This document shows positions 8,526 to 51,371 of a DNA stretch of 64,000 nt, one piece after another; position 1 is the first letter of the stretch; every line of letters starts with the position of its first letter. The stretch covers positions 5,830,001-5,894,000 of the forward strand of contig CM097885.1 of NCBI GenBank assembly GCA_044892525.1, in the 5' to 3' direction. Under the pieces are notes generated by a model that was given only the letters and a program-made list of their open reading frames with translations, was not told where the DNA came from and did not search any database. This stretch comes from Schmidtea polychroa. Its lineage: Eukaryota. A program made the translations under genes and the position numbers.

Positions 8526-9994
8526 TCATAATTTTTCAATTCTGCACCTGAGTAGCAATTTGTCACTTTTGGCTGCTAATTCATTGATTGAGCGATCATC
8601 ATAAATGCAAATTGGATTATTTCTGTCACGTAACGTTTTCCTCCATCCAGCATGACGAGGGCGATCTGAATATTTCATTGACTTGCTCACATAAATGCTG
8701 CCATTTGCTGGATCGATCACATCGATTGTCACGGATTGATTGAACGGCCAATCCAATTGCTCATCATTTGCCCCGCGCATCACACAGAAACCAGCCCAAA
8801 CCCTTTCACCCCCAATCCACACCGCCAAGCACATTTTGTAACCGATTGGCCCGGAATAAAATGCCTCGCTGTAAATATATTCATTTCTCTTTTGTTGTGA
8901 AAATTTATCAATTTGCCATTCAAAAAATCCATAATTTAAATATTTTTCATTTGCTAATTTTCTTTTTTTCAGCGGAATTTCATTGGCGCATTTCGCCATT
9001 TCAAGCTGCAACTGAATCTCAAATTCAAATATTTCAATAAATCAATAAATCACCTTTTGATTTTCCCGTTGCAGCCGCTGCTCGCATTTCTCTTTCATCT
9101 CATCAATTTGCTGTTGACATTTTGATTCAATCACCTCAATTTGCTGTCTGATCTGCTTTGCATCAATAACAAATCAATAACAAATCAATAACAAATCAAA
9201 TCAATAATCAAACTTGATTGATTGATCCAATATTTGTCTCCATCTCCATTCTCAATGAACGATTCTCATTCTTCAATGCCACCAATTCCTCATTCAATTC
9301 TTCTATTTCTCCTCTGCTCTCCACCTCTTTCCTTTCAATATTGCATAATTTCACCTACAATCACAAATAGCAATTAAATTAATTACAAATAAAATTTACA
9401 TTGATGTTATCAAATTGTTGTTTGAATTGCGTCATTTCTCCTTTCAATTCGATAATTTCGTTGCGCAATTTCATATTCTGATCTCATTGCCTGCATCTCA
9501 TTGCATAAATTAATGATCTGATCAATCAATAATTTGCTATGACCTTCATTGTTCTCATTGAGATGGGCTTTCATTTCGTCCTTCTCTACATCATACATTT
9601 CACATCCAATCCTATTGAACGGGCACCTGATTGGCTGCTTGTTGCATGTCCTCATGTGGCTCTCCATCACCTCTAATTCATCTTTGAATTGACAATTTTG
9701 CATTGGGCATCTCACTATCACTTCTGAAATCCTTAGATTGATCGCATGATCTTCAGAAACATCCTTATTGAAATTTATCATTTTCTTTCCACAATGTTTT
9801 GCTGCTCCTGGACAGAATTTATCTTTTCCATCCAAATAATGCTCAATGCAATCAGAACAAAAGCGGCAACCGCAAGGAGGATTGCAAGCTTTTATCATTA
9901 AACATTTGCAAATTCTGCATATCAATTCATTGCTGATTTCATTATCAAATTCAAATTTATTGATCTTCATCATTTCCCATACGCTTGCAAACAT
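8526..9994 (-). CDS. TRAF-family protein (RING, TRAF zinc finger, coiled coil, MATH) with a 1-nt frameshift; pseudogene or assembly error
   Basis: Exons 9994-9400, 9354-9214, 9152-9054 and 9011-8526, with GT-AG introns. RING CRIC..PCGCRFCSDC..CP; MATH WQIDKFS..YSEAFYSGPIGYKMCL..MRGANDEQLDWPF. Exon 1 is 595 nt and needs a frameshift near 9470 to avoid the stop at 9410. Confidence 0.85.
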
Positions 9995-10149
9995 TTTATC
10001 TAAAATTAAAAAAATATTTCAACATTTTACAACATAAATCACAAATTCATACTTATTATATTAATTATTTCCTCTGACGTTTACAATTTCAATATTTATA
10101 ATTTGTATTTTAATGTAGATAAACAAACAATTTATAAATATTGTATTTT

Positions 10150-15139: not shown

Positions 15140-15627
15140 CAAGTATTTTTATATAAAAATTTTCAAATTTAACCAGACACTTTTATTTTTCAAGTGGTGT
15201 GAACTTCACTTTAAAGTACATTATCAAAAAATTTTCTATGTCAAGTGGTGTGACCTTCACTTTAAAGTACTTTCATTTTTTTAAAAATATTTTTCCAAGT
15301 ATTTTATTAAAGCATTTGTTCATTGTCCCAACATGTGTTGAAGAATATGATTTTATTTCTATAATATAAGATTTTCTATGTTTGATAATATATGAATGAT
15401 GTTAAATTATGTCATTTGATGTTGAAGTTTGAGACTTTGGAGGTCATTTTCCATGGAAACTATGCATTTTTTCTATATATAGACAATATAATTTTATGTT
15501 CGTTATAAAATTCCGAGTTTAAAAAACATTTTTCTCCATGTAGTGGTGTCGATGGGACACTACCATGCACGATAAATCAACCCCTTCACCATATTTCTTT
15601 TATACTTGAATTCACAAAAACTTTCGG

Positions 15628-15684
15628 AAGAAGTATAGAGACCTCCCCACGGAAGCGAGGGAGGCCCCGCAAACAGCCATTATG
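15628..15684 (+). pseudogene. AT-hook-coding 3' end of an LTR-borne ORF
   Basis: Translates RSIETSPRKRGRPRKQPL*; homologous to the end of ORF 40465-40668. Confidence 0.55.
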
Positions 15685-18062
15685 ATCCAAATATGATCGT
15701 TAACCACGACTTGCAACGACATTGATAGCGTTTAATTTGTATTGAGAAAAACTAGCTCATACGTTTCTTTAATTGTATCATTTCCTTTATTTTTCATGAA
15801 ATTTCGCGTAATAAATCATTTGAGTATCGCATTGTTAGCTTTGTCTGTTGTAGTACACCTTTGCGGCCAGGCAACTAGATATTAACATACAATTAATAAT
15901 TTTGCTGTGCGATTAAATTAATCTTTCTTTTATGTATATGGATGCGAGTAATAAATTTTCTTATTATCATTCCTTTTTAGTGTTAAAATGGTTCGAGAAT
16001 TTACGCAAAGACCGCGAGCAGGCCCAACAACAATCCGAAGACCTCCGGGTCCGAGTCGAAAAGCTCAAGGGGAAGTGCCGAGAATTCGAGGGCAGCTGGT
16101 TCAGCCCGGCAGAAATGAAGAAACGAACAGTACAGATCCTGCAACTTCAGACCCAGACAGAGCAAGATCAAATTGAAATACGGGCGCTAAAGTTACAGGG
16201 CCGCGCGCTCGAAGTCAAACTAAACGAGAAGTTCATCCAGGACACCCTCAAAGATGTTGGGCTAGAACTGATTTCTGGACCCAAAATACTAATTGTGACT
16301 GAAATGTGTAGGTACACAGCAAGTAAAAAAGCACCAAGTAAAGTTAAATATTAAAACCTACACCAAATAAACAATGGTAATTAAACAGAGAAAACAACAA
16401 AAATAATAAACACACAAATTAAATAAAATCATACAAAAGCAAGAAGTTATGCAAAATCTAACTCAAAAATAACCAAATAAACATAGAATTACAAAAAGCA
16501 AACTCGAATAACTTAAAAGATGGTAAAAACAGTAAAAAATTCCAGAAAACCCAGAACATTCCATTAAAATGGCGATGACCATCACAGAAGCCATAAAGGT
16601 TAGAGAAAATAAATAAATTAGTATTAAAAATAATAAATCTTAAAAAGAAATTCATAAAACACCAGTTAGAATAAAAAGTAAATTAAAAGTAATATAGAAT
16701 GTTCTGGAACCGTTCCAAATCCATCATGGACGTCAAATTAACGAAAAATAATAAAAAAATAAAAGTTTAAAAATAAAAACAAAAATTATGGCACAAAAAT
16801 CGCCATTAAAAATATCAAAATCGCAAAATAGAAAATTCTGGAATAAAAAGAATTCGAGTTTGTTTTAATGCATCAATACATACACGTGTACTAAATAGGT
16901 ATATATACTGACACGTTTCAGTCAGTATTTAGTATTATTTTTATGCCAAATTTTGAACAAAATTTTTCCAACCTACATAGTAAGTAGATTTGATTGAAAT
17001 TTTTTTATGTAGTTATGATTTACTTAAAATTAAAGTATTCCATATTTGATTTTTGTTTCTAAAATTTTTGTTGATGTACGAAGGTTCAACGGCGTACCGG
17101 TATTCCTGCGTCGTTGTTCAGTCCTACATTCGATTTTGTTAATATCCTCATAGTACATGCACACATACATTATTTATATTATACTAATCACTTATTATAC
17201 GGCTGTTTTTGTGTTCGGGTCCTTCGGAGGTCGAACTACTTCATGGTCCTGCCATGGAGTTAGGTCGAGGAAAACCTCCGGCTGACTCTTTGTATTTATG
17301 TAAGGTCGACCGTAAATGGTTGACTCAACACTCAACACTAAGGTTTGTGGAAGTGGTCACAGTGGGGCCATGGAAGCAATATTCTTCCCGACCTTTTACG
17401 TAACACATATTTAAATTCAACATTTAAAATCAGTGCTACAAAAAATACCCTAAGGTTGGTAAATTGAGTAGATCTCATACCTAAAATTCAACAAATCACA
17501 CTTAGTATAGACGGTTGAGTTCCTAAAAATTGACTCTGCCCATACATTGTCGAACCTAGATAAATTTTTTGAATAAAGTAAAGAATTTTCATAATGATTT
17601 AGTTCGTAACTAAGGTTCGATAGATGTATTGGCAGGGCTTGGATTTTTCATTAAATGCAATTAACTGAATACGAATCATATACCTTTAGAACATAGAATC
17701 CCGTCATAATCTTATGAAGTGTTGAAGAATAGTTATAGTTGGGCCCTTCTAAAGGATGGTTATGGATAAATTCGTCGCTAAAAATGTGAATTACCAGTAG
17801 CTGTAGATAAATGCTGTTACAGAAATAGATGGAAATTTTTATGAATTATAGATAATTAGAAACATAAATTAAAATTGCGAAAGTACTTTATACCTAAATA
17901 TATCAATTTTGATCGTAAAAGTAGGAATTCTAAATTGTCATGGGTAAAATTTGCTTACAAAACCATAAATTACAGATCGTTACATGAAAGTTTTATTAAA
18001 ATATAATAATTAGATATGAATTTTTAGCATGAACCTCAACTGCAAAGTCAAAGTTTTAAAAT

Positions 18063-18367
18063 CCAAAATTTTAAATATAAAACATAAATTTCAACTATAA
18101 AATATAAATTAATCCAAAATTTTAAATATAAAATATAAATTTCAACTATAAAATATAAATTAAACCAAAATTTTAAATATAAAATATAAATTTCAACTAT
18201 ATAATATAAATTAATCCAAAATTTTAAACATAAAGTATAAATTTCAACTATAAAATATAAATTAAACCAAAATTTTAAATATAAAATATAAATTTCAACT
18301 ATATAATATAAATTAATCCAAAATTTTAAACATAAAGTATAAATTTCAACTATAAAATATAAATTTT
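18063..18367. repeat. 51-bp AT-rich tandem repeat (~6 copies) inside the giant LTR
   Basis: Unit CCAAAATTTTAAATATAAAATATAAATTTCAACTATAAAATATAAATTAAT; copies start at 18063, 18114, 18165 and onward. Confidence 0.9.
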
Positions 18368-18429
18368 GGTTATGAAAGTATTAACTTCAATTTAAAAATT
18401 TTAAATTATAAATTATATACATACTCTTA

Positions 18430-18465
<36 letters not shown>

Positions 18466-18472
18466 GTTGTTG

Positions 18473-18534
<62 letters not shown>

Positions 18535-18697
18535 ATCATTATTATTATTATTATCATTATTATTATCATTATAATTATTACTAGGATCACTCTTCCTAGT
18601 GTTATTCTTATCAACCGTATGATTATCATTATTATTATTATTACTATTATTTCATTATTAATTTCCAAAAATCAAAATTTGATTGAATTTTATCTAG

Positions 18698-19128
18698 TGT
18701 TCAAACTATTGGAAAATTTGCGAAAGGACAGGGAAGAAGCTCAAAAACATGCCGAGGAGCTCCGCATACGGGTAGACAAGCTCAAGGGACGGTGCCGGGG
18801 ACTAGAAAGCACCTGGTTTAGTCCCGAGGATATGAAAAAGAAGGTGGCGCAGGTCCTTCAACTGCAGACTCAAGCCGCGCAGGATCAGATGGAGATCCGG
18901 GCACTGAAGCTCCAGCTCCGCGCGTTAGAAACCGAGCGCAATGAACAAGTAGTACACGGAGCCGCCATAAGCCAAATCCGGCCGTTGACCGTGGAACTAG
19001 CAGCAATATACCCTCCGGCCGCGAAAGAGAAACCCAAAAGAAAGCGGTTAGGACGGAACATCCGGGAGAAGTTAAAGAAGGCTAGGTTAGCCGAGTATGA
19101 GCGACAAGAAAAATCTACACCAGTGTAA
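18698..19128 (+). CDS. LTR-encoded coiled-coil protein exon with basic C-terminus (unknown family)
   Basis: Open, GC-richer than the flanks, and preceded by an AG acceptor conserved in three copies. FKLLENLRKDRE..LESTWFSPEDMKK..EIRALKLQ..VELAAIYPP..KPKRKRLGRN. Confidence 0.6.
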
Positions 19129-19534
19129 TTTCCGCGATGTGAACAGTCACTTATGCTAGATACATTGAGTTTTCCTTTTTTTTTGTTGTTTATTGTTAAT
19201 GTCTAAATACAAATTTAGTTAAATTAATGTATGAAGTATGTTGTTTGCAAACGTTGAGTGACTGAAAATCGAGGTGTTGAGAGTTGGGAAAACAATTTCG
19301 AATAGGGGACCTGAGGAAATCGGACACATACCTTCTAACGGTAGTCCGTGAACCCGTGGAGTACTCGACAATTATAGTGCTTTGATGCGCTCACTTTTTG
19401 TGGGTACTCAACCCTTGGTACAGTACCAACGTTGATCACTCAACGGGTACCAAGCGGAAAAACAATGTTGTATTTTGGGTTACGCTGGTAACAGCACTCA
19501 CTCATTCAACCACCAGTAACCCACCATACAAATT

Positions 19535-19552
19535 TGGGGGCTCAGTCGGGAT
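19535..19552 (+). promoter_or_regulatory. Primer-binding site, tRNA-Pro type
   Basis: TGGGGGCTCAGTCGGGAT is a 15/18 match to the canonical tRNA-Pro PBS TGGGGGCTCGTCCGGGAT and lies just after the LTR end. Confidence 0.7.
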
Positions 19553-20218
19553 TTGAAAATTTAATTGGTGAAAGAACCCGAGAATAGATATAAGGGGGAG
19601 AGCAAAAGCTGATATAAAGTGATATGCATTCAGGAACGAGCAAGTTGTTTTCCCAAACACTTAAACCTAGTACATGGATGTATGAATATGATGAAATATA
19701 TGTGGAATGTCTTAATGAGTGATGGAAGTTTTAAAGTATGACAACATATGAATATATTGAAAGTGAGTATGAGAACACTGTACGAATAGCGTAGTAATAG
19801 AATGAATGATGATAAACGAAAATTAATACGAAAACAAAAATATAATAAAAATTGTAAATAATTAGCGATTAGTAAAATGTAAATATAAAGAAATAATAAA
19901 AATTTTAAAATAGGGAAAAGGGGAGATAGCGCGCTAATAAAGATAGAACGAATGAACAATGTAATTAAACTTAGTCGGAAACGTGTAAAATAGGGCGATA
20001 ACGAATGGGATATGGGTTATATATAATGAAACGATTATAATAAAATCACAAAATCATGAGAGAAATTTGCGCAGGATAGAACATTAAACAGAGGGAGACG
20101 GGGATGTTGAAGCACTAATAAAATAAGGTATTCTGGATATTAGAGGGAAAATGATAAAGGGAGAAAATGACGCGGAATATTAATAAAAAGAGAACTTTAA
20201 TTAATAAATCTTAATTAG

Positions 20219-20603
20219 ATGGAATCAACCGGCTACATTACAAAGAGACTCGAAAAATTCGTAAATCTAACACACAATTCGTTACAACGGCTAAATCGCA
20301 AAGTAGACCAGTTGATGAAAATCCAAGACGAGATGAGCTTGAATCCAAGACCGCAAGCTGAGGAAATATGTGTAATGATGAAAATAGCAACACCTAATGC
20401 AGAATTGACCACTAAAAGAGTTTATCAAATTCAAAATTTACAATTAGATAATGCCAAATTTAACATCAAATGGCAGGAGATAATGATGAAAATGGAGACG
20501 ATCGAAGAAGAAATTAAAGAAGCGATCGAACGTCAAGTGAAAGACTTTAGAAAATGCTTCATATGCAGAACCAATGAAATACGAGTAATGACGATCCCAT
20601 GTG
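20219..20603 (+). pseudogene. Retroelement accessory ORF: coiled coil plus truncated IAP-type RING
   Basis: ..EEIKEAIERQVKDFRKCFICRTNEIRVMTIPCG, then a deletion junction into the 3' LTR end. Confidence 0.6.
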
Positions 20604-21214
20604 GTTACGCTGGTAACAGCACTCAATCATTCAACCACCAGTAACCCACCAAAGATCAGATTCACCCATACCCGTGGAACTGGCCGAGATCTACCCACCC
20701 GTACAGACGAGCAAGCCAAAACGCAAGAGGCTAGGGCGAAACACCCGACAAAAGCTGAAAAGGGCCTGGTTAGCAGAACAAGAGAAGTTAAGAAAACCCG
20801 AGTCAGCTCAATCATCCTTAATCGCGAGTGAATGCATGGATTCTAATATAGTGATACACATACTGTCGAAACTTGTGATAATTGAATAAATAGTGTTAAC
20901 AATCTAATGTGTATGAGGTTGAGTCGTGTGATCGCTGAAGACAACGAAGTTGGCATAAGGGTGTTTGGGAAAACAATTTCGGTAAGGGACCTCAGAAAAT
21001 CGGACACAATCCTTCTAACGGTAGTCCGTGGACCCATAGAGTACTCGACAATTATAGTGCTTTAGTGCGCTCACATTTTGCGAGTACTCACCAACTTGAT
21101 ACAGTACCAACGTTGATTACACAACGGGTATCAAGCGGTAAATAATGTTGTATCTTGGGGTTACGCTGGTACCAGCACTGAATGACAGATATTTGATCAC
21201 CAGTAACCCACCAA

Positions 21215-21484
21215 TCGCAATTATTCGGATATGTTTTCGGTTGTTTGTATGTTTTTCTGTTATATATGAGTAAGATTTTGTGCAATACTTCTTGTTTGGT
21301 TTCATTTTATTTTTTTTTGTATGTTTTAGTTTTCGTGTGTCATTTTCTTCATTATTAATGTTTAATTGGCGTTTTATATGTTTTGATTTTTATTAAACTT
21401 AATGCTGAGTTGCCGGTTGTGTATTGACACATTTCAGTCACGAAATTGGTTTCTTGGGTCTTAGAAATCAGTTCTAGTCCAACA
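21215..21484 (-). mobile_element. 5' end fragment of the giant LTR family (inverted)
   Basis: Reverse complement reads TGTTGGACTAGAACTGATTTCT.. and is similar to 16255-16500. Confidence 0.75.
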
Positions 21485-22196: not shown

Positions 22197-23645
22197 ATGG
22201 CATGTTTAGGAGGAGAAGCTCAAAAACGCCATGAATATTTCTTGAAAAAAATAACAAAAAAGAACAACGAAGTGAAAAATATTCACAGAATAATTTTAAT
22301 AGGTACTGGTGAATCGGGAAAATCAACTTTCGTTAAACAAATGAAACTTTTATCCTCGATCAACCAAACATTTCCTGACGTTTATCGTGCTAAATTTATT
22401 CCGGAAATACAGCGGAATCTCGTTCAAGCGTTGACGGCTATTTTGCAATTTATGGACCAAGTGAAGCTTGATTTCAAACAACCCAACGCCCATTTGCATA
22501 CAGCAAAGAAGGAATTGTATGAAATTCGCGATCAGATTGATAAAAATCCTGATACTATTGAGAAGTATGCCAATAGTAGCGAAATTGACGTGCGAAATAT
22601 TTTTTATGATAATTGCAAGGCTTTATGGAGAGATCCAAACATACTCGATACATTTCAAAGATCGAACGAATACCAACTGATTGACAGTGCTCAATATTTT
22701 CTTGATAAGATAGATTTGATCCGCCAGCCTGATTACAAACCATCTGATGACGATGTCCTTCAGTGCCGAACAAAAACTCTTGGAATTCATACAGAGATTA
22801 TTAACTATAATAATGTCAATTTCGAATTGGTTGATGTTGGTGGCCAAAGAGATCAAAGAGCAAAATGGATAGAAGCATTAAGCGATGGGGTAACAGCGGT
22901 GATATTTTTAACAGATGTTTCTGCGTATGATATGGTTTTAGCCGAAGATCAAACTACAAATCGCTTAAGAGAATCGGTAAGCTTATTGGGACAAGTGTGG
23001 ACAAAAAATCCTTTACGAGATAAATCAATTATCCTTTTTCTCAATAAGCAAGATAAATTAGAAATGAAAGTACGAAAAGGACGAACTCAAATTGAGACAT
23101 ATTTTCCAGAATTTAAACAAGAAAAATGCAAACATATTTTTGAATTAATTAAAGACCTCAAAGCTGCTCGTGGAAAACGAAGCAAGAAAGAGAGTGATAT
23201 TTGGGAGAAGTATTTTTCATATTTTCTTCCCCAAATGCGGGATCAGAAAAAAACAGAAAATCCTGAAGATGCAACACGCCAACAAAGAGAGACTCAAATT
23301 ATTAACGAGTATTCACAAATTCAGTCGCAAGTCGCAAAAGTTTTTAATGACGGTTCGGTGGATAAATGGCTAACGGATGGAGATGATGATGACATATTTT
23401 CTCATTTGATGAAAAATGACGAGTTTATCAGTTTTCATAAAAGAATAATGAATATAACATTTTATCAGGTGGTTAGCATAACTTTCTTCATAGAAAATCA
23501 ATTTCTGCACCAATGTGAACAGACAAGCAATCGACATATTTATCCGTATCCGACTACAGCCATTGATAAGAGAAATGTTGATCGAGTGTTTGAGTCTTGC
23601 AAAGATATCCTCCAAGGCAAACTTCTCACTGAGATAATGGCGTAG
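22197..23645 (+). CDS. Heterotrimeric G protein alpha subunit, divergent Gs-like, intronless, 482 aa
   Basis: GTGESGKSTFVKQM, RSNEYQLIDSAQYFLDK, QCRTKTLGI, DVGGQR, IILFLNKQD, YPYPTTAID..RVFESCKDI. N-terminal MACLG resembles Gs MGCLG. Confidence 0.95.
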   Translation: MACLGGEAQKRHEYFLKKITKKNNEVKNIHRIILIGTGESGKSTFVKQMKLLSSINQTFPDVYRAKFIPEIQRNLVQALTAILQFMDQVKLDFKQPNAHLHTAKKELYEIRDQIDKNPDTIEKYANSSEIDVRNIFYDNCKALWRDPNILDTFQRSNEYQLIDSAQYFLDKIDLIRQPDYKPSDDDVLQCRTKTLGIHTEIINYNNVNFELVDVGGQRDQRAKWIEALSDGVTAVIFLTDVSAYDMVLAEDQTTNRLRESVSLLGQVWTKNPLRDKSIILFLNKQDKLEMKVRKGRTQIETYFPEFKQEKCKHIFELIKDLKAARGKRSKKESDIWEKYFSYFLPQMRDQKKTENPEDATRQQRETQIINEYSQIQSQVAKVFNDGSVDKWLTDGDDDDIFSHLMKNDEFISFHKRIMNITFYQVVSITFFIENQFLHQCEQTSNRHIYPYPTTAIDKRNVDRVFESCKDILQGKLLTEIMA

Positions 23646-24155
23646 TCTCGTTTTATTATTTATTTTTTTTAGTGTTTTCCAAAGTTGAATCGTTGGTCAT
23701 TATAAAATATATTTAGTTGTATAAAGTATGACTACATTTATACTTAACACTTGTGAAGAAACTAATATTATTTTCTTTTTGTTAATAAGAAAGGATTCTT
23801 GATCAAAGATCTTACAATCAAATGACTACAGTTAAATAATAGTTGTAACATTAGTTTTCGATAAATTTTAATCAGGGATTTACTTTAATCAAATAGAAAT
23901 ATTAAAATGTAAGTATGTTATGATTTAATAAATATAAAACTAATACATGATCATAACCAAAAATCATTGATACAAAATTTTACATTCATAAATTTTCAAA
24001 AATGAAAGCAAATAGTTTTGTTTAAATTCATCAGAATTGATTTTCTTTTAAATATGAATCTTAAAAACAATTAGTAACTTTAATTTAAAACTTCATTATT
24101 TATTTTGTTTGCTATATTTTGGTTAAATAATATTATATATAGAATTAGTTCAATT

Positions 24156-24742
24156 ATGACTTATACAAATGAAAAGTATACTATGTTTTATAAAAATTCA
24201 GTTTTCAGTCAATTTTATGCTTGCAATTTTACTGTTAATAATCAGAAATTCAATTGCTGTTTGCAATATATGATGTATAAAAAAGCATGTACAACTATTT
24301 GTCAGGTATTATTATTTATTCATTGAATTTAGTATTATTTCACGATGAAAAAATCGCAAAAAAAATATTAAAAGAAAGAAAGCCGATAATTATCAAAGAA
24401 CTTGGTCGACAGGTTCATGATTTTAATGAGATTGTTTGGCAAGAAAATCGAGAGAAAATTGCTAAAGAGGGAAATAAAGCGAAAGTATTGTAAATAAATT
24501 TGACAGACAATTTTATTTTATTATAATAGTTTACTCAAAATAAGGATCTTTTATTGAACTTATTAAGCACAAAGGGTTCGAAGCTCGTGGAAACGAATCC
24601 AAATGATTTGATATGGGGTATCGGATATTCTGAAACCGACCCAGAAGCGTTCGATGAGACAAAATGGCGAGGATTAAATTTATTGGGGAAAATTATCTCT
24701 GATATTCGAGATGAAATATTATCTGAAAATTCAACTAATTGA
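24156..24742 (+). CDS. NADAR/YbiA-family protein, copy 1 (3 exons, 165 aa)
   Basis: Exons 24156-24288, 24333-24484 and 24530-24742 (44- and 45-nt GT-AG introns). FSQFY, MMYKKALLF, LGRQV, KFTQN, LVETNPNDLIWGIG, WRGLNLLG. Confidence 0.9.
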
Positions 24743-24789
24743 TTTTAATAAATTTTGTTTGTCTTTATTTCTATTTTCCCATTGGTTTG

Positions 24790-25450
24790 TTATTGGGAAG
24801 GCGCAATTCGACCTTTCCGTATTGATATTGGCTCCATTGCAGGGAGAATGATCAAGCTGTTATTGTGATGTTTAATGGCAGTTAAATTATATATGAGTAC
24901 ATAACAATATGCATGCAACGCGGTGGGTTTCAGCTGATCTGGATTTTGCGTTATTATGTTGTTTCCAACGCAATCCAGAATACGATGTGACTCACCCGTT
25001 ACCGGAGCAGCGTTTGCATTATTCCGGGTAGGTGAATACTAGGGAAAGCAGCGTAACTTTGTAAGCTATCGTGGGTTACAAGTAATCCATATTTTAGCCT
25101 TCCGTGTCGTTTCCGACGTAACCTAAAATGCAATAGTTTATTTTACTATCCGATACATGTTGAGAAATCAACGTTGGTGCATCTTCCCACGGCCTGCTGA
25201 TAGAGGACTATGTCGGACTTCATTTAGATCACCTTGTTCTATGTTTCATCAATTCAAACCCATGTCATTCATATTGAAATGCATTTAATTCCCTGTACTG
25301 TGTCGTGAGTTAATAATTACACCGAGGAACGTTTTTTACTGCACCACCAAATTCATAAACACCACACAAAACAGTACACAAAAGTGAGTCTGTTACCAAC
25401 CACGCGATCTGATTCATTAGGATAGTTTAGAGCATGATTAGAGTGTCCTA
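24790..25450 (-). mobile_element. Diverged relative of the giant-LTR 3' region
   Basis: Reverse complement of 25070-25185 (CACCAACGTTGA..GGTTACG..GTAACCCAC) matches 19424-19525. Boundaries are approximate. Confidence 0.5.
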
Positions 25451-25688
25451 AGATTCGGGCATTCGTGCGCGCTAACCACCTAGCGCGTTTCGTGTATAAA
25501 AGTACGATAAAATATCCAAATCATATAAAATTAATTAATTTAAAGCGATAAGTATTTACTCTTGTCTCGAAATTGTCATCTTCGTTCGCATTTCCTGATC
25601 ATCCATTCATTAATCGTAACTTCTATGTATAATCCTTTCTTGTCCGATCTTTAGCTCTAATTTGAGTCATTTCATCATTTTATAATAT

Positions 25689-25930
25689 TGTTGGGCTAGA
25701 ACTGATTCCTAAGCCCAAAGTTAGGAATGGGACGAAATGTGTCAGTACACAACACGCATACCCAGCATTAAGTTTACTTAAATAAAAATATATAAAACAC
25801 CAAGTAAACAATGATAATAGAGAGATAATATACCCAAAAATAAAACATCTGAATTAAAAATAAAATAAAACACGAGCAAGAAGTAATACACAAAAACTTA
25901 CTCAAATATAACCGAAAGACATAAAACAAT
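25689..25930 (+). mobile_element. 5' end fragment of the giant LTR family
   Basis: TGTTGGGCTAGAACTGATT..GAAATGTGTCAGTACACAAC.. Confidence 0.75.
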
Positions 25931-26591
25931 CCTTTTATAATATGTTAGATGACATGGGTTTTTAAGTTTATCCTTTAATTATGTAAAGGATTTTAACTTC
26001 TTGCGCTTATCATTTAATTTATAGGTATTTATTTATTCTCTATATGCTATGTATTTTCCGTTGTATTGTTTGATGTATTTGAATTTTTATTCTATTTTTT
26101 TATTTCTAATAGATTTCCATGCTATTTTTCTGGCTCATTTAAAAACGCTATCAATTTTTCTGTGTAGCTCAGCACTCATCACGAATTTCCTACACATTTG
26201 TGGATTCCATGACTCACCTTTAACGTCCGGCTTAGAAAAATGATTCAGCTACCGTTAATAATCGATGTGTCTCACCTTTCAGGATTCTGAAGCCCACCAT
26301 CCCTCGGTGAGGGCCAAGGTTCACTAAAATAATTCTAAAATTTTGTCATTGTTAGAAGCAATTAAATTCAAATCTTTCATAAAAATTTATTCAATAATAA
26401 AATTCAATTACTCTAAATTTGTTTTTAATATTCAAACAACTAGGATTTGCAATTTTGATATTTGTCCAAATATCACCCACAATTATGTCAAATTGATAAA
26501 TATAAAATATGCAAAATTAAAATAGTTATTTTAATTAATATAATTTACTTTAAATTCCTTAGAGATATCTTAAGTAATTGCATAATAATAA

Positions 26592-27946
26592 AGTTAAATC
26601 CATCTTTAGATCCATCTTTAAATTTCGCAGAAAAATCTTGAGACTAACAATATATATTTATTCATAGAATTTATAAATAACAAGTTTTAATTAATTCACA
26701 AAAAACACCAATTCCGAATTTTTTAAACAAAAAGATAATTAACTCTCCCCTTCTTAAGACTTTTTCCACTTCTTCAGCCACTCGATTCTTCTTTCTTTCG
26801 TTCCTTCTTGTGAATGTAGTTCGACTCGATGAGGTGATAGAAATCTGGCGATTTTATATGGGCCATCGTATTGCATACCATCCTTGTACCTGTTCTGCGG
26901 CTCTTTACGTACGAGTACCTCCTCCCCCACCTCGAAAACACGAGTGCCCCTCTTTGTCTTATCCATAGCTCCCATAGTGTCTGCGGCTTTACTCGAGTCA
27001 AATCTCGCGTCTTCGATTCTTTCGCTTCTTGATATCTCGGCGTGTTTCAGGTTAGAGTGTAGGTTAACACTCCGTCCATAAATTATCTCAAATGGTGATA
27101 AACCTGTAGCACTTTGTCGACTGCTATTTATAGTGAACTCTATTCTGGGTAGAATTTCGTGCAGTTTCTCTCTTCACATCCACCTTCGAATGTTGCTGTA
27201 ATAAGATCTCTTATCGTTCGTATGGCTCTTTCGGCTAAACCATTTGATTAGTGCTGATAAGGTGAGCTGAATTCCTGTTTGATTCCAAGTTTCTGTAGCT
27301 TCTGTCTTAGGAAATTCCCTTCGAAATTTCGGCCTCTATCTGTTAAAATACTCTTCGGTCTTCCAAATCGATAGATCCAACTATTAAGTATTGTTTTGAA
27401 AATGGTCCCTTCGTCTTGCTTTGTGATTGCAGTTAAAGAAATCAGTTTGCTAAAACGGTCCACCATTACTACCATATATTTTTTATGGCGTTTATTTCCA
27501 TGTAAGCCACATCAATAACAATCTGTTCTAGGAATTCAGAGATATATCTAGAAATAAATGTTTCTTTGGTTCTTGTTTGATCGATCTTTCTCTTAGCACA
27601 GATCTTGCAACATCGTAAACAGAGTTGGATTGTTTCTTGCATTTTCGGCCAATAAAATATCTTTTCCATATAATGAATTAATTTCTTAACTCCAATGTGA
27701 CATAGTTCTTCATGTAGCGTTTTTGTTAACAGGCCTGCAAATGTTTCTGGGACTAACATTAAGATATTTTTGTTCTTTTCTACTGTTATTAATCCTCCAT
27801 CAATTCGTGTATTTTTTACGTTAAAAGGAAAGCAATTCTTTTTCTCCCGTGTACATCCATTTTCCAATATCTCTAGCAGCTCTCGAAACCGAATGTCCTT
27901 TTGTTGTTGTTCCCATACTTTTTCTATAGCTTCTGTTCTTTGGATA

Positions 27947-27995
<49 letters not shown>

Positions 27996-30759
27996 CTTTG
28001 ATTTTCCTTCCTTAGCTTCTTCATGTCTTGTTTGGCACTGGGTGCAAACAATACTTTTTAATCTTGATAGTCCATCTGCATTCGAGTGTTCTTCGCCTTT
28101 CCGATATTTTAGTTCAAAATCATATTCCGACAGGTATGCTAACCATGTTTGGAACTGCGGACTGATTGGCGTTTTTGTAGTGTTCATGAAAACCAATGCT
28201 TTGTGGTCGGTGCGAATTATGAATTTTTCCCCATACAGATATTCTCTAAAATGCATGACGTATTCATGTACGGCGAGCAGTTCTTTCCTGGTTACACAGT
28301 ATCCCTTTTCATGTGATGACATATGTTTCGAGCCATAAGCTATGACCGATTCTTCTCCATCTTCTGTAATTTGACTCCGGAATGTCGCAGGAGCTGTTGC
28401 TAAGCCAAACGGTAGTCTATTGAAGCAAAATTGTCCTTCTCTTGTACTGAATGCAGTCATTTCTTGAATTTCTGAAGCCAACTCCACTTGATAATATGCC
28501 TGACCTAAATCGATTGACGAAAATATTTTTGCATTCGCGAGACAGTCTAGTAAGAATTTGGTGTTAGGCATAGGAAATGACTCTTTTTCTGTTATGGAAT
28601 TTAATCCACGATAATCTACACACATCCTGATAGATTCATCTTTCTTTGCTACTATCACTAACGGGGCATTCCAAGGACTCTTGCAACACCGAATAAAATT
28701 TGCTTTCATTAACTCTTTTATCAGTTCTTCAATCCTTTTCTCCATGTGCATCGGTTGACGTCAAGGATGTTGCATTATTAGGCCTCCTGTTATCCGATTC
28801 TCATGTCGAACTAAGTTTGTAAATCCCAGATCGAATTTCGATGTCATAAAAATTCCGCCGAATTCCCTGATCATTCCTTCAATATCTTTATTATTCTCAC
28901 CTGCCATCGCCACTAGTGCTTTATTTATTCTTTCTTCATCAGTGTAAAATTTGTTTATCAATGACGTTTCTATATTATTGATTTTCATTAACTTTACTCC
29001 AAACTCTTTCATTGTATCAATGCCCCCTATGAATTCGGGTTTGATCTCTTTTACCACTACTACTGTGATTATTTTGGTCTTCTGATTCCATGTGGCCGGT
29101 ATAGTCATGATTCCCATTGCTTCTTCACCTCCAGTTGAAAAAACTCCGCACAATAATATCATACTACGTTTAAGTTCTGGTTTGCCTATTTTCTCATACA
29201 AATTCTTGCTCATGACTGTTACTGATGCTCCAGAATCCCATAACATCTCTGTTTCGGCATTATTCAACATTATTTTACTCCAATTTCTTCCATCTTTCGT
29301 CTGGTACATCTCTTCTTCTGCTTCGTCTTATTTCACAATTTATTGTCTTAACTCCACCGACGAAATGAAACCCATGGAGTCGCTGATGTTTTTTCCGTCT
29401 TCTCTCAATATAGTATATTTCTCAGGGACATAGTATCTATCTTCCATATTGCTGTGATCCATTCTGAAATCCTGGCTGTTTTCCGTGTAATCTCTATTTT
29501 CAGATTTTGAATCTTCTTCTTCTATGCACGCTATTCTTTGATATCGGTGTGGAACATCTTTCCGTTACGAAAAACAATCTCGGAACCCGTGTCCTTCCTT
29601 GCCACATATCAGGCATTTATTTCCCCGTCGACATTCATACCTTCTATGTCCCCTTTCGCCACAGCAAAAACAATCACCTACCGTTAATTTTGGGACCGAT
29701 GCTTGTGGTAGTCCCCTACTTTTGTTTTACAGCCTCCTTGCAATATTCTTCATGTATATTGTTGGCAGCTTTCTTTCTGAGCTATTCAGGATTCTCGTAT
29801 TTCTCAAGAATTGTTCTGTTGAAGATTGTTCTCGACGACCATCTCGACGACCATGGTTATTTCCTTCGTATTGTATTGGTCCGCGTATAGGATGTTCGTC
29901 TCTTCTTGATCTGTGGTGGCTAAATGTGTCTTCTGATAGTCTTCTTTTAAATGATGTAGGCATGGGATCTTGGGTATTCTTTTGAATTCTCATCTTCCCT
30001 CCCTCAGTCACGCTAGCGTATGTTCTTTGACCGATTGCTTTAACAAATTCTGTTTTATGGTTTCCATTTTTGTTACTTTCAAAAATTTTCGCCAATGATC
30101 TCGTTTCTTCAATTTTTGTTTCTGGTTTCGTCAATAGTATCTCCCGCAGTCTCGCATCGCGTGCTTTATTTGCGATGAGGTCTTGAACAATATCTTCTTC
30201 TGATCGTCCTGAATTTACAACTTCAGCTAAAGCTTTTCTTAGCCGTATCTCAAAAGCTGCAAACCTTTCATCATCTTCCTGTTCCATAGCTGCCAATTCT
30301 CTGATTTTGTCAGTTATAGATTTTGTAATTGTGAACGTATTTAAGAACCACGCTTTGGCTTTTACATCTGTTGTTTCTGTTTCTCTGACGTTTCCCCACA
30401 ATGTCTTTGCTTCTGCCACTAATAACACATCGAAAGTGCTTGTCAATCGCTGTCCATTTGTCAGCAACCATTCTTTTATATCACTGATCCATTCTTCGGC
30501 TTCTTTAAACCTCGTCCATCATATCGTCTGATGTTCAGTATGAACATGTCTTGGCATGATTTCCGCAGGCATTCGATTTCGAAATGGCGTTGATATTTTG
30601 ATTTTCGGCGTGGTCGCTAGTTAAATCCATCTTTAAATTTGCAGAAAAAATCTTGAAACTTACAATATATATTTAATCAAAGAATTTATAAATGACAAGT
30701 TTTAATTAATTCACAAAAATCGCCAATTCCAAATTATTTAAACAAAAAGATATCTTACT
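26592..30759 (-). mobile_element. Ty3/Gypsy LTR retrotransposon, both LTRs present, internally deleted and degenerate
   Basis: LTRs 26592-26744 and 30619-30759 with AGT..ACT termini; 5-bp TSD AATAA; PBS T(A)GCGACCACG (tRNA-Arg-like); PPT AAGAAGGGGAG. Gag ~30560-29727, protease LWDSGAS, RT truncated at RLPFGLATAPATF and fused to RNase H (RKELLAV, TDHKAL, NADGLSR), integrase H..H..C..C and ILTDRG. Confidence 0.93.
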
Positions 30760-31009
30760 AATAATATAATAATTTTTCTAAAATAACCAATTAATAATCT
30801 CAATTAAAAAAATATTGACAAAAATTTTGAAAAGTTAAGTAAATATTTCTTGTTTAAATTTTTTTTCTTGTTTAAACTTTTATTTATTTATATTTTTGTA
30901 TAATACAAATTTTTATAAAAGCTTGTGACTTTAATTTGTGACTTCTTGATAATTGACTTTTTTTATTATATATTGGTTAAGTTAAATAATATTTAGAATT
31001 TCTTCAATT

Positions 31010-31599
31010 ATGTCTATTAAGAATGAGTATACTATGTTTTTTTCAAGATCAGTTTTTAGTCAATTTTATTCAAGTACTTTTACTGTTAATAATCAGAAAT
31101 TCAATTGTTGTGAGCAATTTATGATGTATAAAAAAGCATGTTTGACTTTTTGTTATGGAATGAATTATTTATTCTCCTAATATAGTATTATTCCATGATG
31201 AAGAGATCGCCAATAAAATATTAAAAGAAAGAAAGCCGGGAAATATAAAAAAACTTGGTCGACAAGTACATAATTTTAATGAACAAATTTGGAAAGAAAA
31301 TCGGGAAAAAATCGTTAAAGAAGGAAATAAAGCGAAAGTATTGATGATAAATATGATAAATTTATTTGATAAATTTATTTTAAAAGTTCACTCAAAATAA
31401 AGAGCTTCAAATGGAATTATTAGCTACGAAAGGTACAAAACTTGTGGAGACGAATCCAAATGATTTGATATGGGGTATCGGATATTCTGAAACCGACCCA
31501 GAAGCGTTCGATGAGACAAAATGGCGAGGGTTAAATTTATTGGGGAAAATTCTCACAGATGTTCGAGATGAAATATTATCTGAGAACGCAATTAATTGA
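31010..31599 (+). CDS. NADAR/YbiA-family protein, copy 2 (3 exons, 164 aa)
   Basis: Exons 31010-31139, 31186-31337 and 31387-31599 (46- and 49-nt introns at the same positions as copy 1). CCEQFMMYKKA, KFTQN, LVETNPNDLIWGIG, GLNLLG. Confidence 0.92.
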
Positions 31600-31799
31600 T
31601 TTTCATAAATATAATTATTTTGTATGACTTCGTTTTATTGATTTTTACCATTGGTTATTAAATTTACTTTTTCTGCATTTCTATTGGCTGGATTGTAATA
31701 CACCCAAATCTTGCCTTCTGAGTCAAGTAGTTCAAGAGTGCATTGTATATTATTGTTAGTGGAGTTTGCATGTGTCAAGATTATAATGAGAAGTACCGT

Positions 31800-32420
31800 G
31801 GAGACTTAAAAAATGTCATCGTTGTATCTTTTCCACATCAGGATTTTATCTCCAAAAAATGATCTAATATTTGATTCTGCATGATGCATGCAGAAAATGG
31901 GTAAAACTGTTCGGACAAAACGAAAAAACAAGAAACTCTGGAAAACTTTAAAACACGGTTCTTACAAAATGGATACCCAAAGTAGTTCGTAGAAAAATAC
32001 TTTTTGAGTGAATATAACTCTAATAGGCATAATACACAAAATAAACATGTCAATAAGCCAGTAATATACCTACGCTTCCCTTTTTTAAACAATTGGACAT
32101 ATAACACAATCAGAGCTTACATTCGCAATATGGAGTTTCCTGTTCATATTCGCCCAATTTTTATAACTGCTGCAACTTTGAAATCGCAGCTTCGTAAGTC
32201 TCGAAAATTTCTAACATCAGACCTATTTCATCGAGATTGTATTTGCCAATCCTCCACCAAATGTTTCTGCTTCTCAAAGAACATTGTTTACCAAATTACT
32301 TGCACAATATGTGATGCATCGTACATAGACGAAACACATAGAACGTTCCAAACAAGACTCAACGAACACGTCAAGAGCAAAACCAGCAATTATCACGAAC
32401 ACTGGAAAAAAGTGCACACT
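31800..32420 (+). mobile_element. Penelope-like element 3' fragment (RT tail plus GIY-YIG endonuclease)
   Basis: FLQNGYPK*F, YLRFPF, NIVYQITCTICDASYIDETHRTFQTRLNEH. Confidence 0.8.
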
Positions 32421-32482
32421 CTTACACGAAACAAAATGCAAAATGTTACAAGATGCGTTCAAAAAATCATTGCAAAATATGT

Positions 32483-32610
32483 TGTTGGGCTAGAACTGAA
32501 TTCTAAACCCAAATCTTGGAAATATGATGAAATGTGTGTCACACAACACGCATACCTAGCATTAAGTTTATTTAAATAAAATATATACAACACCAAGTAA
32601 ACAATGAAGG
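32483..32610 (+). mobile_element. 5' end fragment of the giant LTR family
   Basis: TGTTGGGCTAGAACTGAATTC..GAAATGTGT..CATACCTAGCATTAAG. Confidence 0.7.
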
Positions 32611-34329
32611 CCTCCGTCGAATCGGGCGCTTGTTTTAAAGATCGGTGTGTTGAGGTTTTAAAAGTAAATTATTAAATTTTATCAAATCGAATAGTTCAGA
32701 ATAAAAGGAAAACCGAAATTGAATGGCGGTCAAGCAGAGAGGTAATGGCGTATAAAGATATGATAAAATCAGAACTATAAAAGGGTACAATCAGACACGA
32801 AATGGAAAAATGCACAAACCTGAGGAAGTGGAATAAAGCGAAATGTTATCAAAATTGAAGCTGAAAAACGGGAAAGGGGTAGATTAAGAGATGGTGAAGA
32901 AAACAGTGGGTGGGAAATTGTTAGAAAATGTTAAGAAAGAGTCGTAAAACAGGCAAATGTGATAAAACACAAAACATTAATTAATTAATTAATTGGCTAA
33001 TGGGAAGCCCAAGCCAAAGGAGAATCTGAGCGATGAAGAAAACCTGAGCGCGGCAATTTGGAAGGGTAAACAAACGGGGAATTCACAGGGCAATTATCCA
33101 AACAGCCAGATAAACGAGGATAAACAAACGAAGGGGAATTACAAAGAAGGTCAACAGAAATAGCTAATTAGAGAATGATAGCTAAAGAAGTCAAAACCAA
33201 TTAGGTCAAAAATGGGGCAATTACAACGATTATGAGAACGTTGGGCTAGAACTGATTTCTAGACCCAAAACTTTATTTTGTGACTAAAATGTGTTGGTAC
33301 ATTACGCACATACCTAGCAATAAGTTTAGCTAAATATAAAAATAAAAACATCAACTAAACAATATTAATTAAGAGAAAAAACAACAAAAAATAAAAACAC
33401 TGAAATTAAATAAAATCTCACAAATGCAAGAAGTATTGTAAGAAAATGAACTCAAATACAACAAAGAAACATAAAACTACAAAAAACAGACTCGAATGAC
33501 TTTGAAAGATAGTAAAATACTAAATTCTAGAAGAAATTCCAGAACAGTTCATAAAAATTGCGACATCCATCATAAAAGCCATGTAAACCAACAAAAGTTA
33601 ATAAAAATAAACCAATTAGTTTTTAAATAAAAATTTGAAAAAAAGAATTTAGTAAAATGACCTTAAAATAAAAATTAACTTTAATTTAATATAGAATGTT
33701 CTGGAATTGCCCAAATCCATCATGGAGGCAACTTTAACAAAAAATAATTAAAAAATAAAAATTTTAAAATAAAAAAAAATTATGGCACTAAAATCGCCAT
33801 TAAAATCATCAAAAATAGAAAATTCTAGAATAAAAAGAATTCGAGTTTATTTTAATGCATCAACGCACACACACGTACTCGCACACACAAAAATAGGTAT
33901 ATATACGTTTTCGTCACAAATCACTCTTTATATCAAATTTTTTGAACTATATTTGCCGATTTTCAATTCGAGATCTATCAATAGTAAGTATGTTTGTCTA
34001 ATATGTTTTGTATTATTTAACCATAATTATAATACATTGATTTTATGATAACGTTTTTCTTTTCCACAAGAGTGACTCAGGTCGTGGTGCTCGTATTCTG
34101 ACACGCGAACTAAGCCAGTCTTGTGTCTTGTTAAAAGTAAAAAATCATCGTCGTCATTGAGCCCACACCCCTTGACCACTGCCTGACATGCATTTATTCA
34201 TATCTATATGGAGCGGGGTCGTCGGAGGTCGTACTGACTCGGTGGTATAAGCCGCTGAGTTCGTCGATAAATACCCTCTGGTACGGCGAAGTTCTCGGAA
34301 ATCGTTATAGTAATATTTATATCTCGGTA

Positions 34330-35751
<1,422 letters not shown>

Positions 35752-37294
35752 TCGGTAGTATATTGCCGATTCATATAACACTCGGGCTTGTCGTAGTAAG
35801 CCCAGTGTGGCCACGAAAGCAAGCAACTTTCTGTAATCGACTCTTCATTGCACTAATAATCTACATAATAAACTCAACACTAAAAATCACATCATCACAT
35901 CACACTAAGACACAATAAACAGAGTAAAGCTCCAGACGTAAATCAATCACAATTTTGTTGACGAATAACGTAGCCGGTTAAATCTAAAATTCATACTCTA
36001 AAATCATACTAGGGATGGTATTACATACGTTTATGTCGAAATCAAATCTAAACTTCGAAAATCTGCTAACTAATCTATAGTATGCTGTTAAAAAATTGAG
36101 GGCATTTGAATACTATGAAATGAAAATTTGGTAAATTCTTCTCGATATTATAATGATCCTAAATAAGCGTTGTATTCATAAAGTGAAAAATCTCGGTTTC
36201 CAACGAATGGACTCTGGGAAATAGGTATAAGAACGACAGTATTGAAAACCTTAATTAAAGATCTCGACATATATGTACGCATTCCAAGGACAACGATCTA
36301 GATCTACTCAACTGTATATTAAACTATGATCAAATTAAGCTGAAGATCCTCTATTTATGTGTTTGATTAGAATTTCAATTTATAAATTCGTAATTGCTCA
36401 AACTTGCAGTCATCAACTATTATTCAGACGATTTCATTATACTCTCTATAAAATTATATTGTAAAATACAAACCAAAACCCTCATAACTAGCCATGACCT
36501 TAATTGTTGGTCATGCATATGAAATGGAGATGATATTAACGAATATTTTAGATCATACTATAATTTGAAATATAAATGATGAAAACTTTTATTAATGACC
36601 CTCTCGAATGTTATAGCCCTTGACTTTACCTATTTGCACTTAATCGGGCTATATTGATGTATATTTTGACTTATAATATATTTAAAAATATAAATTATAA
36701 AAATTTTATAGATACCCCTCAGGTACTCTAGCCCGCTAATATTGACTAACTGCACTTAATGGGACTATATTGCTATGTGCTTTAAATTATATTATATTTA
36801 GAAATATAAATTATAAAATCTTCATAAATACCCTCTCGAGTACTGTAACCAGTCGATAATGCCTAAATGTACTCAATCAGACTATGTTAATATATCTTTT
36901 AGTTCATACGATGTTTAAAATACAACTTATAAATTTTTTTTATACCCCCCAATAATTATCAACACCACCCGTTATCTAACTATACTGACTCGCCTCATCG
37001 TAATCTATAGTCAATGTATATTTTACTTCAAATTACCGATAACCCCCCAAAATCATTTAGTTATCAAATATCACCTAAATATGCTCGAGTGAATTATCCC
37101 AATATGTATTTAGTTTGCAAACATCTAACTTGTAAATTTGATATTTGACCCCTCTTACGTCACAAAGCGGCAACACCAATGTTGATAATACCAAAATACT
37201 AGATGCACAAAGACATTCAAACCTTAAATTACTAACTGATAAATTTATATTTTTTACTCCCTAATTCGTAATTATCGCAAAATTGGGCCTCACA

Positions 37295-43778: not shown

Positions 43779-51371
<7,593 letters not shown>

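Follow-up and report, generated by a model that had tools for sequence, protein, structure and literature searches.

Lone long terminal repeats (LTRs) are usually regarded as non-coding promoter relics. The locus described here, in a 64,000-nucleotide window of the Schmidtea polychroa genome (assembly GCA_044892525.1, contig CM097885.1, positions 5,830,001 to 5,894,000), raises the question of why an LTR should contain a conserved coding exon, and whether that exon belongs to a gene housed entirely within the LTR. The explanation that we favor, with a probability of roughly 0.6, is that it likely forms exon 2 of a spliced gene complete within the LTR, which would encode a regulator of the element's RNA and is seen here in a deleted, nested copy. 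Coordinates are those of the window, and stranded features are on the forward strand unless stated otherwise.

The repeat at 16255-20651 is a single insertion, nested in an older LTR of its own family. The termini given in the initial annotation (TG at 16255, CA at 19526 and again at 20651) are confirmed, as is the AAGA target-site duplication on both sides (16251-16254 and 20652-20655), a 4-mer with a frequency of ~0.5% in the window; the LTR ends form a short inverted match (TGTTGGG versus TGGTGGG). The complete 5' LTR (16255-19526; 3,272 bp, TGTTGGG...CCCACCA) contains the 51-bp satellite, in six copies, and the open coding stretch (18700-19125) that had been assigned to it. The LTR end does occur twice, with 48 of 49 bases identical, and these last 49 bp (20603-20651) are all that survives of the second direct repeat, the rest being deleted; a short microhomology marks their junction with the internal region. 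What the initial annotation overlooked is that the copy is internally deleted, with the 3,272-bp LTR followed by 1,076 bp of internal sequence and the 49-bp end of the second LTR, and that the deletion cuts a RING-finger accessory ORF. Normal reverse transcription is unable to restore a 3' end of 49 bp, and a short element replicating as such was rejected because of this remnant; a Penelope-like pseudo-LTR was rejected in view of the tRNA primer site and the 4-bp duplication. In Penelope-like elements, moreover, an RT and GIY-YIG ORF is part of the repeat and a tRNA primer site is absent, whereas the GIY-YIG pieces nearby lie outside the repeat. Ty3/Gypsy elements are recognized by a pol in the order protease-RT-RNase H-integrase and by RT phylogeny; the element itself is without gag-pol, and none is linked to the LTRs of its family within the window, the gypsy gag-pol at 26.7-30.6 kb being unrelated and flanked by its own short repeats.

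Eight bases past the first LTR end, the proposed primer binding site is present as 24 nt (19535-19558) complementary to a tRNA from the CCA to the T-loop; the label Pro-type denotes resemblance (compare the Cer1 site) and reflects complementarity to a tRNA 3' end, not the host tRNA set. Further into the internal DNA, the accessory ORF (20219-20605) encodes a coiled coil and a C3HC4 RING, inside which the deletion cuts; the ORF is intact in the database relatives P0001 and P0002 (160 aa, 95% and 83% identity; Pfam zf-C3HC4_3, E ~3e-12).

The host of the insertion is itself an LTR, with the same terminal CA motif at 21213. Its left part (15644-16250) carries, at 15644-15685, the tail of a second ORF that includes an AT-hook-like motif and, from 15981, the start of the coiled-coil exon; its right part (20656-21213) carries the remainder of the exon with one frameshift, AATAAA at 20885, the conserved 3' block and a CA end with no primer site after it. 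The host ORF is collinear across the insertion, as expected if the element had entered the same ORF of an older family member, and the anchor spacing, 57 bases in the host once the insert and one duplication copy are removed versus 58 in the young copy, fits the single host frameshift. A decayed sister LTR, of ~5.4 kb net (33239-41574), is broken up by two elements, one with inverted repeats (34329-35752) and one of hAT type (~37.3-38.8 kb), and is cut at its 3' end by another element; it retains a TATA box and the donor, and further on an extra ORF at 40366-40668 and, starting at 40971, the exon. There are also three 5' LTR fragments of the family, one inverted, on the reverse strand, at 21221-21484, 7 bases from the end of the host LTR, and two at 25689-25926 and 32483-32606. 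Of six family-like termini proposed earlier, five match the first 14 bases with at most two mismatches; that at 59918 (16 of 36 bases) was rejected as a subfamily member, as was one at 52843 (12 of 36 bases, possibly one base out of register).

The coding terminal exon of the LTR (18698-19128) specifies a coiled coil, a CRxxExxWFxPxxM motif and a basic tail. Judged from codon comparisons between copies, it is under strong purifying selection with saturated synonymous sites. For the young copy versus the host, pN/pS is 0.23 over 86 codons (95% bootstrap interval 0.15-0.32, Fisher p 2e-20) and 0.24 over a second segment of 39 codons; versus the copy at 41 kb, it is 0.26 (55 codons) and 0.41 (22 codons). 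The shifted-frame controls give 1.5 and 1.9, pS in the longer segments is 0.84-0.95, and GC3 is 0.51-0.62 in the exon versus 0.30-0.39 in seven other ORFs. The motif is kept, from about the same first residue, in two distant relatives, P0003 (41%) and P0005 (28%), and the basic tail is conserved. Purifying selection reveals use during the replication of the family; expression of lone LTRs does not follow from it.

Upstream of the exon, the LTR contains what read as the signals of a promoter and a splice. A TATA box block (16893-16908, with TATA starting at 16900) is identical in the sister LTR (TATA at 33898), a 15-mer being exact in both copies, and both have an initiator-like TCA(G/C)T 24-25 bases downstream of it. 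The predicted first exon (16924-16979), whose start is placed from the TATA box, ends in A; it has an in-frame ATG at 16943 in the young copy only, the sister exon 1 being without an upstream ATG. The sister copy also begins CG instead of TG. A predicted intron of 1,718 bp (16980-18697) would run from a GTAAGT donor at 16980 (homolog at 33984) to an AG acceptor at 18696-18697; within it lie the satellite (18060-18365) and a following TTA microsatellite (18427-18660). There is one GTAAGT per LTR, at homologous positions in the young and sister copies, in an island of 10/10 identity within a stretch whose 50-base blocks are 52-58% identical, and the base before it is A in both, versus 6 of 25 such motifs window-wide. 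Since the 9-mer donor motif occurs at least twice in 17 of 100 window shuffles, it is informative by homologous position alone, and the conservation of donor and TATA box is that of two copies. The acceptor reads AG/TG in all three copies; window-wide, 56 of 666 acceptor-like sites are followed by TG. Donor and acceptors share the same phase, such that the predicted splice would create an ATG. A further AG/TG is located inside the predicted intron, at 18600. Downstream of the exon, a poly(A)-like hexamer occupies the same place in all three copies, 74-80 bases before the conserved 3' block; it is AATAAA in two sister copies and AATACA, a weak hexamer, in the young one (19206-19211).

The splice, start and poly(A) sites drawn from these signals are predictions. 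Given the conserved TATA box, donor, acceptor and poly(A)-like signals, the whole two-exon gene likely lies within the LTR, with the satellite in its intron. Transcription would start ~25-30 bases past the TATA box at 16900, and a ~55-base first exon would be spliced from 16980 to 18698, the joining of A and TG yielding either the start codon or the extension of a 12-codon leader; the resulting short mRNA would end soon after 19206 and could be produced by every LTR, lone LTRs included. Since the intron persists in the LTRs, it must be retained in the genomic RNA, which must also read through the poly(A) site of the 5' LTR; if the same promoter drives it, the R region would be ~2.3 kb. The likeliest task of the protein would then be Rev-, Rem- or CERV-like, a nuclear control over spliced versus unspliced element RNA. 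Of all the steps in the explanation this is the weakest, and we put it forward tentatively. The earlier proposal that genes reside in the LTR and are dispersed with it holds in so far as the LTR is several kb long (3.27 kb here, ~5.4 kb net in the sister) and contains coding DNA under purifying selection; the notion of a complete gene borne by lone LTRs gains support from the predicted promoter, the splice signals at both ends of the intron and the poly(A)-like hexamer.

For the exon product, a coiled-coil dimer bearing a basic tail is predicted. The homodimer model scores 0.55 versus 0.01 for the best control, with runs agreeing on at least 96% of contacts and pLDDT of at least 83. The mark employed was reached by 21 of 30 pairs and none of 23 single chains in a microbial benchmark, and in eukaryotes by 17 of 29 pairs (7 of 16 from animals) and none of 30 single chains, with only 1 of 7 eukaryotic pairs without an older solved relative reaching it; the pass may stem from a generic memory of coiled coils. 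Searches with the exon protein point to an orphan. No match was obtained among 50 candidates; a profile search of 4,185 candidates, of near lengths only, returned P0003 as the sole match; and among 1.84 billion representatives there were three matches, one of which, the WD-repeat protein P0004, was dropped as a chance match over 25 residues only. The Atlas searches gave weakly recognized matches or none, no Pfam family was above cut-off, Foldseek found no match in the PDB or viral models at E up to 0.001, and no fold or family match from the Pfam, Foldseek and Atlas searches points to a function. No related loci were found in metagenome or viral contigs, the sole DNA match, L001, lying in a helicase-like bacterial or phage contig and having no similarity to the window. 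As a separate observation, the P0005 model is a piece of a calponin-homology protein fused to the LTR exon, a hint that host transcripts can be captured through the acceptor or, at the least, that it can lead gene annotation astray.

A protein of this kind might instead act on the host. The gene model would then be right, and the product would be an anti-silencing or chromatin factor, part of an anti-apoptosis and ubiquitin toolkit like that of Burro, with a sister AT-hook ORF in the longer LTRs. The second LTR ORF of the host copy does end in an AT-hook-like motif (Pfam AT_hook E 0.011, short of the curated threshold), the ORF that follows the primer site has a RING of IAP type, and accessory domains of the apoptosis and ubiquitin kind are described for Burro (PMC6431247). 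The exon is, however, without homology to any host protein or fold, and retention of the intron in the genomic RNA would provide a direct reason for an RNA regulator; we thus regard a host-directed role as somewhat unlikely.

A second donor, GTGAGT, is present in the internal leader at 19763, raising the alternative that transcription begins close to the 3' end of the 5' LTR and that the LTR exon is no more than the last exon of the resulting element mRNA, a leader or gag donor being spliced to the U3 of the 3' LTR; lone LTRs would then spread acceptor and exon only. There are precedents, in that CERV joins gag-region exons to a 3' exon (PMC10309623) and MMTV sag is encoded in an LTR (PMC11998498). 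The conserved, non-coding 3' block (19284-19526), likely U5, could house a short R-U5 with a TATA-less promoter. It is 88% identical to the host copy, versus 62% directly upstream, and is moderately structured, with a folding z of -3.1 with the primer site and -2.2 and -1.8 without it. Compensatory changes were found at none of its 63 pairs in an alignment of two sequences, which lends no support to an RNA response element there, and there were no Rfam matches and no ARAGORN genes. A very long R region is unusual, which favors this alternative, but upstream of the exon the LTR has kept a canonical TATA box and its sole GTAAGT donor, in phase, and the poly(A)-like hexamer precedes the 3' block in all three copies; on balance, we judge it unlikely. 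Very improbable is the proposal that the repeat is a BEL/Pao-type or non-autonomous large element with a captured piece of a host gene, and no gypsy accessory gene, since, despite the lack of gag-pol linked to the LTRs in the window, the 4-bp duplication and the Pro-type primer site suit gypsy better, the exon has no host homolog, and the saturation at synonymous sites shows that selection within the family has been long.

If the two-exon LTR gene is real, the LTR is a complete, selected, intron-containing gene, with a protein-coding unit scattered at every recombination, and the family is a second invertebrate candidate, after CERV, for RNA control in the style of complex retroviruses; a gene so housed could account in part for the length, several kb, of some flatworm LTRs. 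A broader joint reading, which we consider distinctly improbable as a whole, is that the 2.3-kb R region is a spliced regulatory gene with alternative terminal exons, all of which would receive the first base of their start codon, A, from one tiny exon 1. One would encode the coiled-coil/basic protein and another, present in longer LTRs, an AT-hook protein, and each would have a poly(A) signal to itself; a Rev/CERV-like switch would set short mRNA against unspliced genomic RNA, and lone LTRs would supply the product in trans or trap host genes. The selection on the exon, the conserved TATA box and donor, the in-phase acceptors and the shared poly(A)-like hexamer are new here. No intron-containing gene wholly inside an invertebrate LTR was found among the titles and abstract openings returned by literature searches, and Burro LTR ORFs may already figure in the Burro extended data or Repbase.

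The family invites comparison with giant gypsy-like elements. Burro/GYPSM1 of planarians has an internal region of up to 25 kb, a total of >30 kb, and a giant polyprotein with BIR, BCL2, MATH and env-like parts (PMC6431247). Multi-kb LTRs like those here are implied by these sizes, and the RING ORF after the primer site fits the upstream accessory ORF and apoptosis and ubiquitin domains of Burro (PMC6431247); the polyprotein, env and total length are not visible in the internally deleted copy, and section 7 of the Burro account (PMC6431247) describes no gene inside the LTR, where one is predicted here. Plant Ogre elements likewise have multi-kb LTRs (1.9-6.5 kb) and extra ORFs, of unknown function (PMC6431247); these ORFs are internal, whereas the exon under selection here sits in the LTR, together with a predicted promoter and intron of its own. 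The combination of multi-kb LTRs with an accessory ORF upstream, being common to Burro and Ogre, is not diagnostic of Burro.

Export factors of the Rev, Rem and CERV kind are made from spliced mRNA of the element, oligomerize, carry a basic stretch for RNA binding or localization, and export unspliced RNA through a structured response element. With respect to the expression strategy, MMTV encodes Sag in its LTR, as with the exon here, and Rem, a Rev-like export protein, from spliced RNA (PMC11998498); MMTV differs in being a vertebrate retrovirus and Sag in being a membrane protein, and here promoter, intron and poly(A)-like signal apparently all lie within one LTR. In errantiviruses of the springer subclade, the env start codon is completed by splicing, AU + G (bioRxiv 10.1101/2023.08.03.551782), yielding Env from an internal ORF, whereas the join predicted here is A + TG, inside the LTR. 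Cer1 is a Ty3/gypsy element with a tRNA-Pro primer site, and its CERV, an orphan product of spliced mRNA, combines a leucine zipper with a basic localization signal and is required for export of the unspliced RNA (PMC10309623); set beside CERV by description, the present family shares the Pro-type primer site and would share an orphan coiled-coil/basic protein made from a spliced mRNA.

The element at 16255-20651 is a real, young, deleted member of a long-LTR family that carries selected coding sequence in its LTR. Its boundaries, the duplication, a repeated end of some 50 bp, a primer site after the first end and a location within the same ORF of an older family member had all been proposed in the initial annotation, and all are borne out. 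The element starts with TGTTGGG at 16255; its terminal motif is found at 19526, 20651 and 21213, and the ends at 19526 and 20651 are identical at 48 of 49 bases. AAGA, a 4-mer at about 0.5% of window positions, flanks 16255 and 20651. The primer site (19535-19558) begins 8 bases past the LTR end at 19526 and comprises 24 bases complementary to the 3' end of a tRNA, spanning CCA through the T-loop; we take it to be of the Pro type, from its resemblance to the Cer1 and MLV sites. The host ORF is collinear on both flanks, its anchors lying 57 bases apart when the insert is subtracted together with one copy of the duplication, versus 58 in the young copy. Given the matching ends, AAGA flanks, primer site and collinear host ORF, 16255-20651 is a single insertion.

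The insert consists of a complete 3,272-bp LTR (16255-19526), an internal region of 1,076 bp and only 49 bp from a second LTR. The internal part terminates in an ORF (20219-20605) truncated within a RING finger, whereas two 160-residue database proteins, 95% and 83% identical to it, extend through the entire C3HC4 RING; short microhomology is present at the junction of internal DNA and second LTR. With the RING ORF cut here but whole in two relatives, and with microhomology at the junction, the young copy is an internal deletion from which gag-pol is gone.

The element sits in an older LTR of its own family (15644-16250 and 20656-21213), which ends at 21213 and has no primer site there. A decayed sister LTR, the third of the family, spans 33239-41574, or about 5.4 kb after subtraction of two nested DNA elements. 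Alignment places its 5' part on 16256-17015 and its middle on 17334-18005 (for the middle, score 110 versus a null of 47 +/- 8 in 60 resamplings), and pairs its exon and 3' block with those of the young copy. Of six family-like termini listed initially, those at 16255, 21484, 25689, 32483 and 33239 match, but 59918 does not. An inverted 5' LTR fragment (21221-21484) is separated by 7 bases from the end of the host LTR at 21213. Within 25678-25945, a 240-bp 5' LTR fragment is bounded by an 11-bp direct repeat, which reflects either microhomology at a deletion or a long duplication made by an insertion that did not use integrase. On the reverse strand, 25104-25178 is a distant copy of the 3' block (71% over 75 bases), ended near 25070 by a near-copy of the terminal motif, and 54802-55600 holds a decayed, GC-rich ORF in which a short segment resembles the LTR exon motif (11 of 2,000 shuffles scored as high), possibly from a distant LTR family, perhaps beginning near 59918.

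Other elements and genes share the window. Penelope-like RT and GIY-YIG pieces lie at 47313-48773 (reverse), 31986-32480 (forward) and 15562-15643, one of them bordering the host LTR on its left. An unrelated decayed gypsy element (26606-30752, reverse), with gag, protease, RT/RNase H and integrase-like pieces, is bounded by short repeats (26606-26737 and 30621-30752). An intron-less open G-protein alpha ORF (22197-23645, forward; 482 codons; Pfam G-alpha E 2e-84), whose C-terminal half contains a long insertion, is possibly a retrogene or a lineage-specific paralogue. Two copies, 80% identical, of a small intron-containing gene (24018-24753 and 30868-31610) bear a resemblance to the NADAR/YbiA family. 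A TRAF-like gene with RING, zf-TRAF and MATH domains (8526-10018, reverse) and part of a phytochelatin synthase gene, including a short intron (43743-44195, forward; Pfam E 3.5e-11), are also present.

The LTR exon (18698-19128 in the young copy) is genuine coding DNA; the coding exon that had been suggested inside the LTR is under purifying selection, with pN/pS of 0.23-0.41 across window copies. Comparison of the young and host copies gave a pN/pS of 0.23 for a segment of 86 codons (bootstrap 0.15-0.32) and of 0.24 for one of 39; comparison of the young and 41-kb copies gave 0.26 for 55 codons and 0.41 for 22. In the longer of these segments synonymous sites are near saturation, and shifted-frame controls gave 1.5 and 1.9. 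Exon GC3 is 0.51-0.62, versus 0.30-0.39 in seven other window ORFs. Among 1.84 billion representatives searched, only two relatives are credible: P0003 (157 residues, 41% identical) and P0005, whose last 155 residues match at 28% and whose front part contains a calponin-homology domain. Both alignments begin at about exon residue one and keep the CRxxExxWFxPxxM motif and basic tail. A further match, P0004, was discarded as due to chance. The P0005 gene model fuses a parvin-like calponin-homology part to the exon homolog at residue 262, reflecting either exon trapping or an annotation chimera.

We consider it probable (about 0.65), from sequence features, that this exon belongs to a self-contained gene inside the LTR. 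The exon frame opens at an AG/TG acceptor in all three window copies; window-wide, TG follows 56 of 666 acceptor-like sites. The young and sister LTRs each have one GTAAGT, at 16980 and at the homologous 33984 respectively, both in a 10/10 identity island within 50-base blocks 52-58% identical, and both immediately preceded by A; joining donor to acceptor would give A + TG. An ATG at 16943, in the exon frame, is present in the young copy and absent from the sister. A TATA block, exact in these two copies, lies 80 and 86 bases upstream of the donor, with identity high upstream of the block and falling downstream; the conservation of donor and TATA is a comparison of two copies. A poly(A)-like hexamer followed by GT-rich sequence occurs 74-80 bases before the conserved 3' block (19284-19526) in three of three copies, and the 51-bp satellite (18060-18365) and a TTA run both fall within the predicted intron. 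Against the gene model, two or more occurrences of the donor 9-mer turn up in 17 of 100 shuffles, the internal leader contains a further donor and the predicted intron a further AG/TG. The host and 41-kb copies have in common an extra upstream ORF absent from the young LTR (score 59 versus 29 +/- 5), ending in the host with an AT-hook-like motif (E 0.011, below the cut-off); since this ORF has a weak in-frame AG/TG near 40346, alternative terminal exons are possible in the longer LTRs.

The AlphaFold model of the exon product has three helices (mean pLDDT 83, pTM 0.35, six-row alignment), and Foldseek searches of PDB and viral models (E up to 0.001) gave no fold match. For residues 1-100 the prediction is a parallel homodimer, with a score of 0.55 versus 0.01 in the best of three controls, agreement between runs on 96% or more of contacts and a pLDDT of 83 or more. 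The dimer mark used was passed by 21 of 30 pairs of microbial proteins, with 0 of 23 single chains doing so, and in eukaryotes by 17 of 29 pairs (7 of 16 among animals), with 0 of 30 single chains; because only 1 of 7 eukaryotic pairs without an older solved relative reached it, the pass may reflect coiled-coil memory. Since the LTRs keep the intron, genomic RNA would have to escape both splicing and an early poly(A) site in the 5' LTR, and an orphan, dimeric, basic LTR protein from spliced RNA could let it do so. Complex retroviruses and Cer1, as described in parts of PMC10309623 and PMC11998498, handle unspliced RNA with a protein of this type, and by analogy we tentatively propose, at less than even odds, that the exon protein controls spliced versus unspliced element RNA. 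The 3' block, 88% identical versus 62% upstream of it, is most simply U5; its folding is moderate (z -3.1 when the primer site is included, -2.2 and -1.8 when it is not), with 0 of 63 compensatory pairs in an alignment of two sequences.

The coding LTR has a counterpart in MMTV, whose sag protein is LTR-encoded. Its combination of a multi-kb LTR and an accessory ORF is also that of Ogre and Burro, as covered in part of PMC6431247; the portions of PMC11410931, PMC8532177 and PMC13238120 consulted add nothing further on Burro LTR content. In a search mostly of titles and abstract openings, we found no publication describing a gene with an intron that is contained entirely within an LTR of an invertebrate element; Grohme 2018 may already show LTR ORFs. 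The start codon completed by splicing that is predicted here for the LTR gene resembles that of springer-type env, as outlined in part of bioRxiv 10.1101/2023.08.03.551782.
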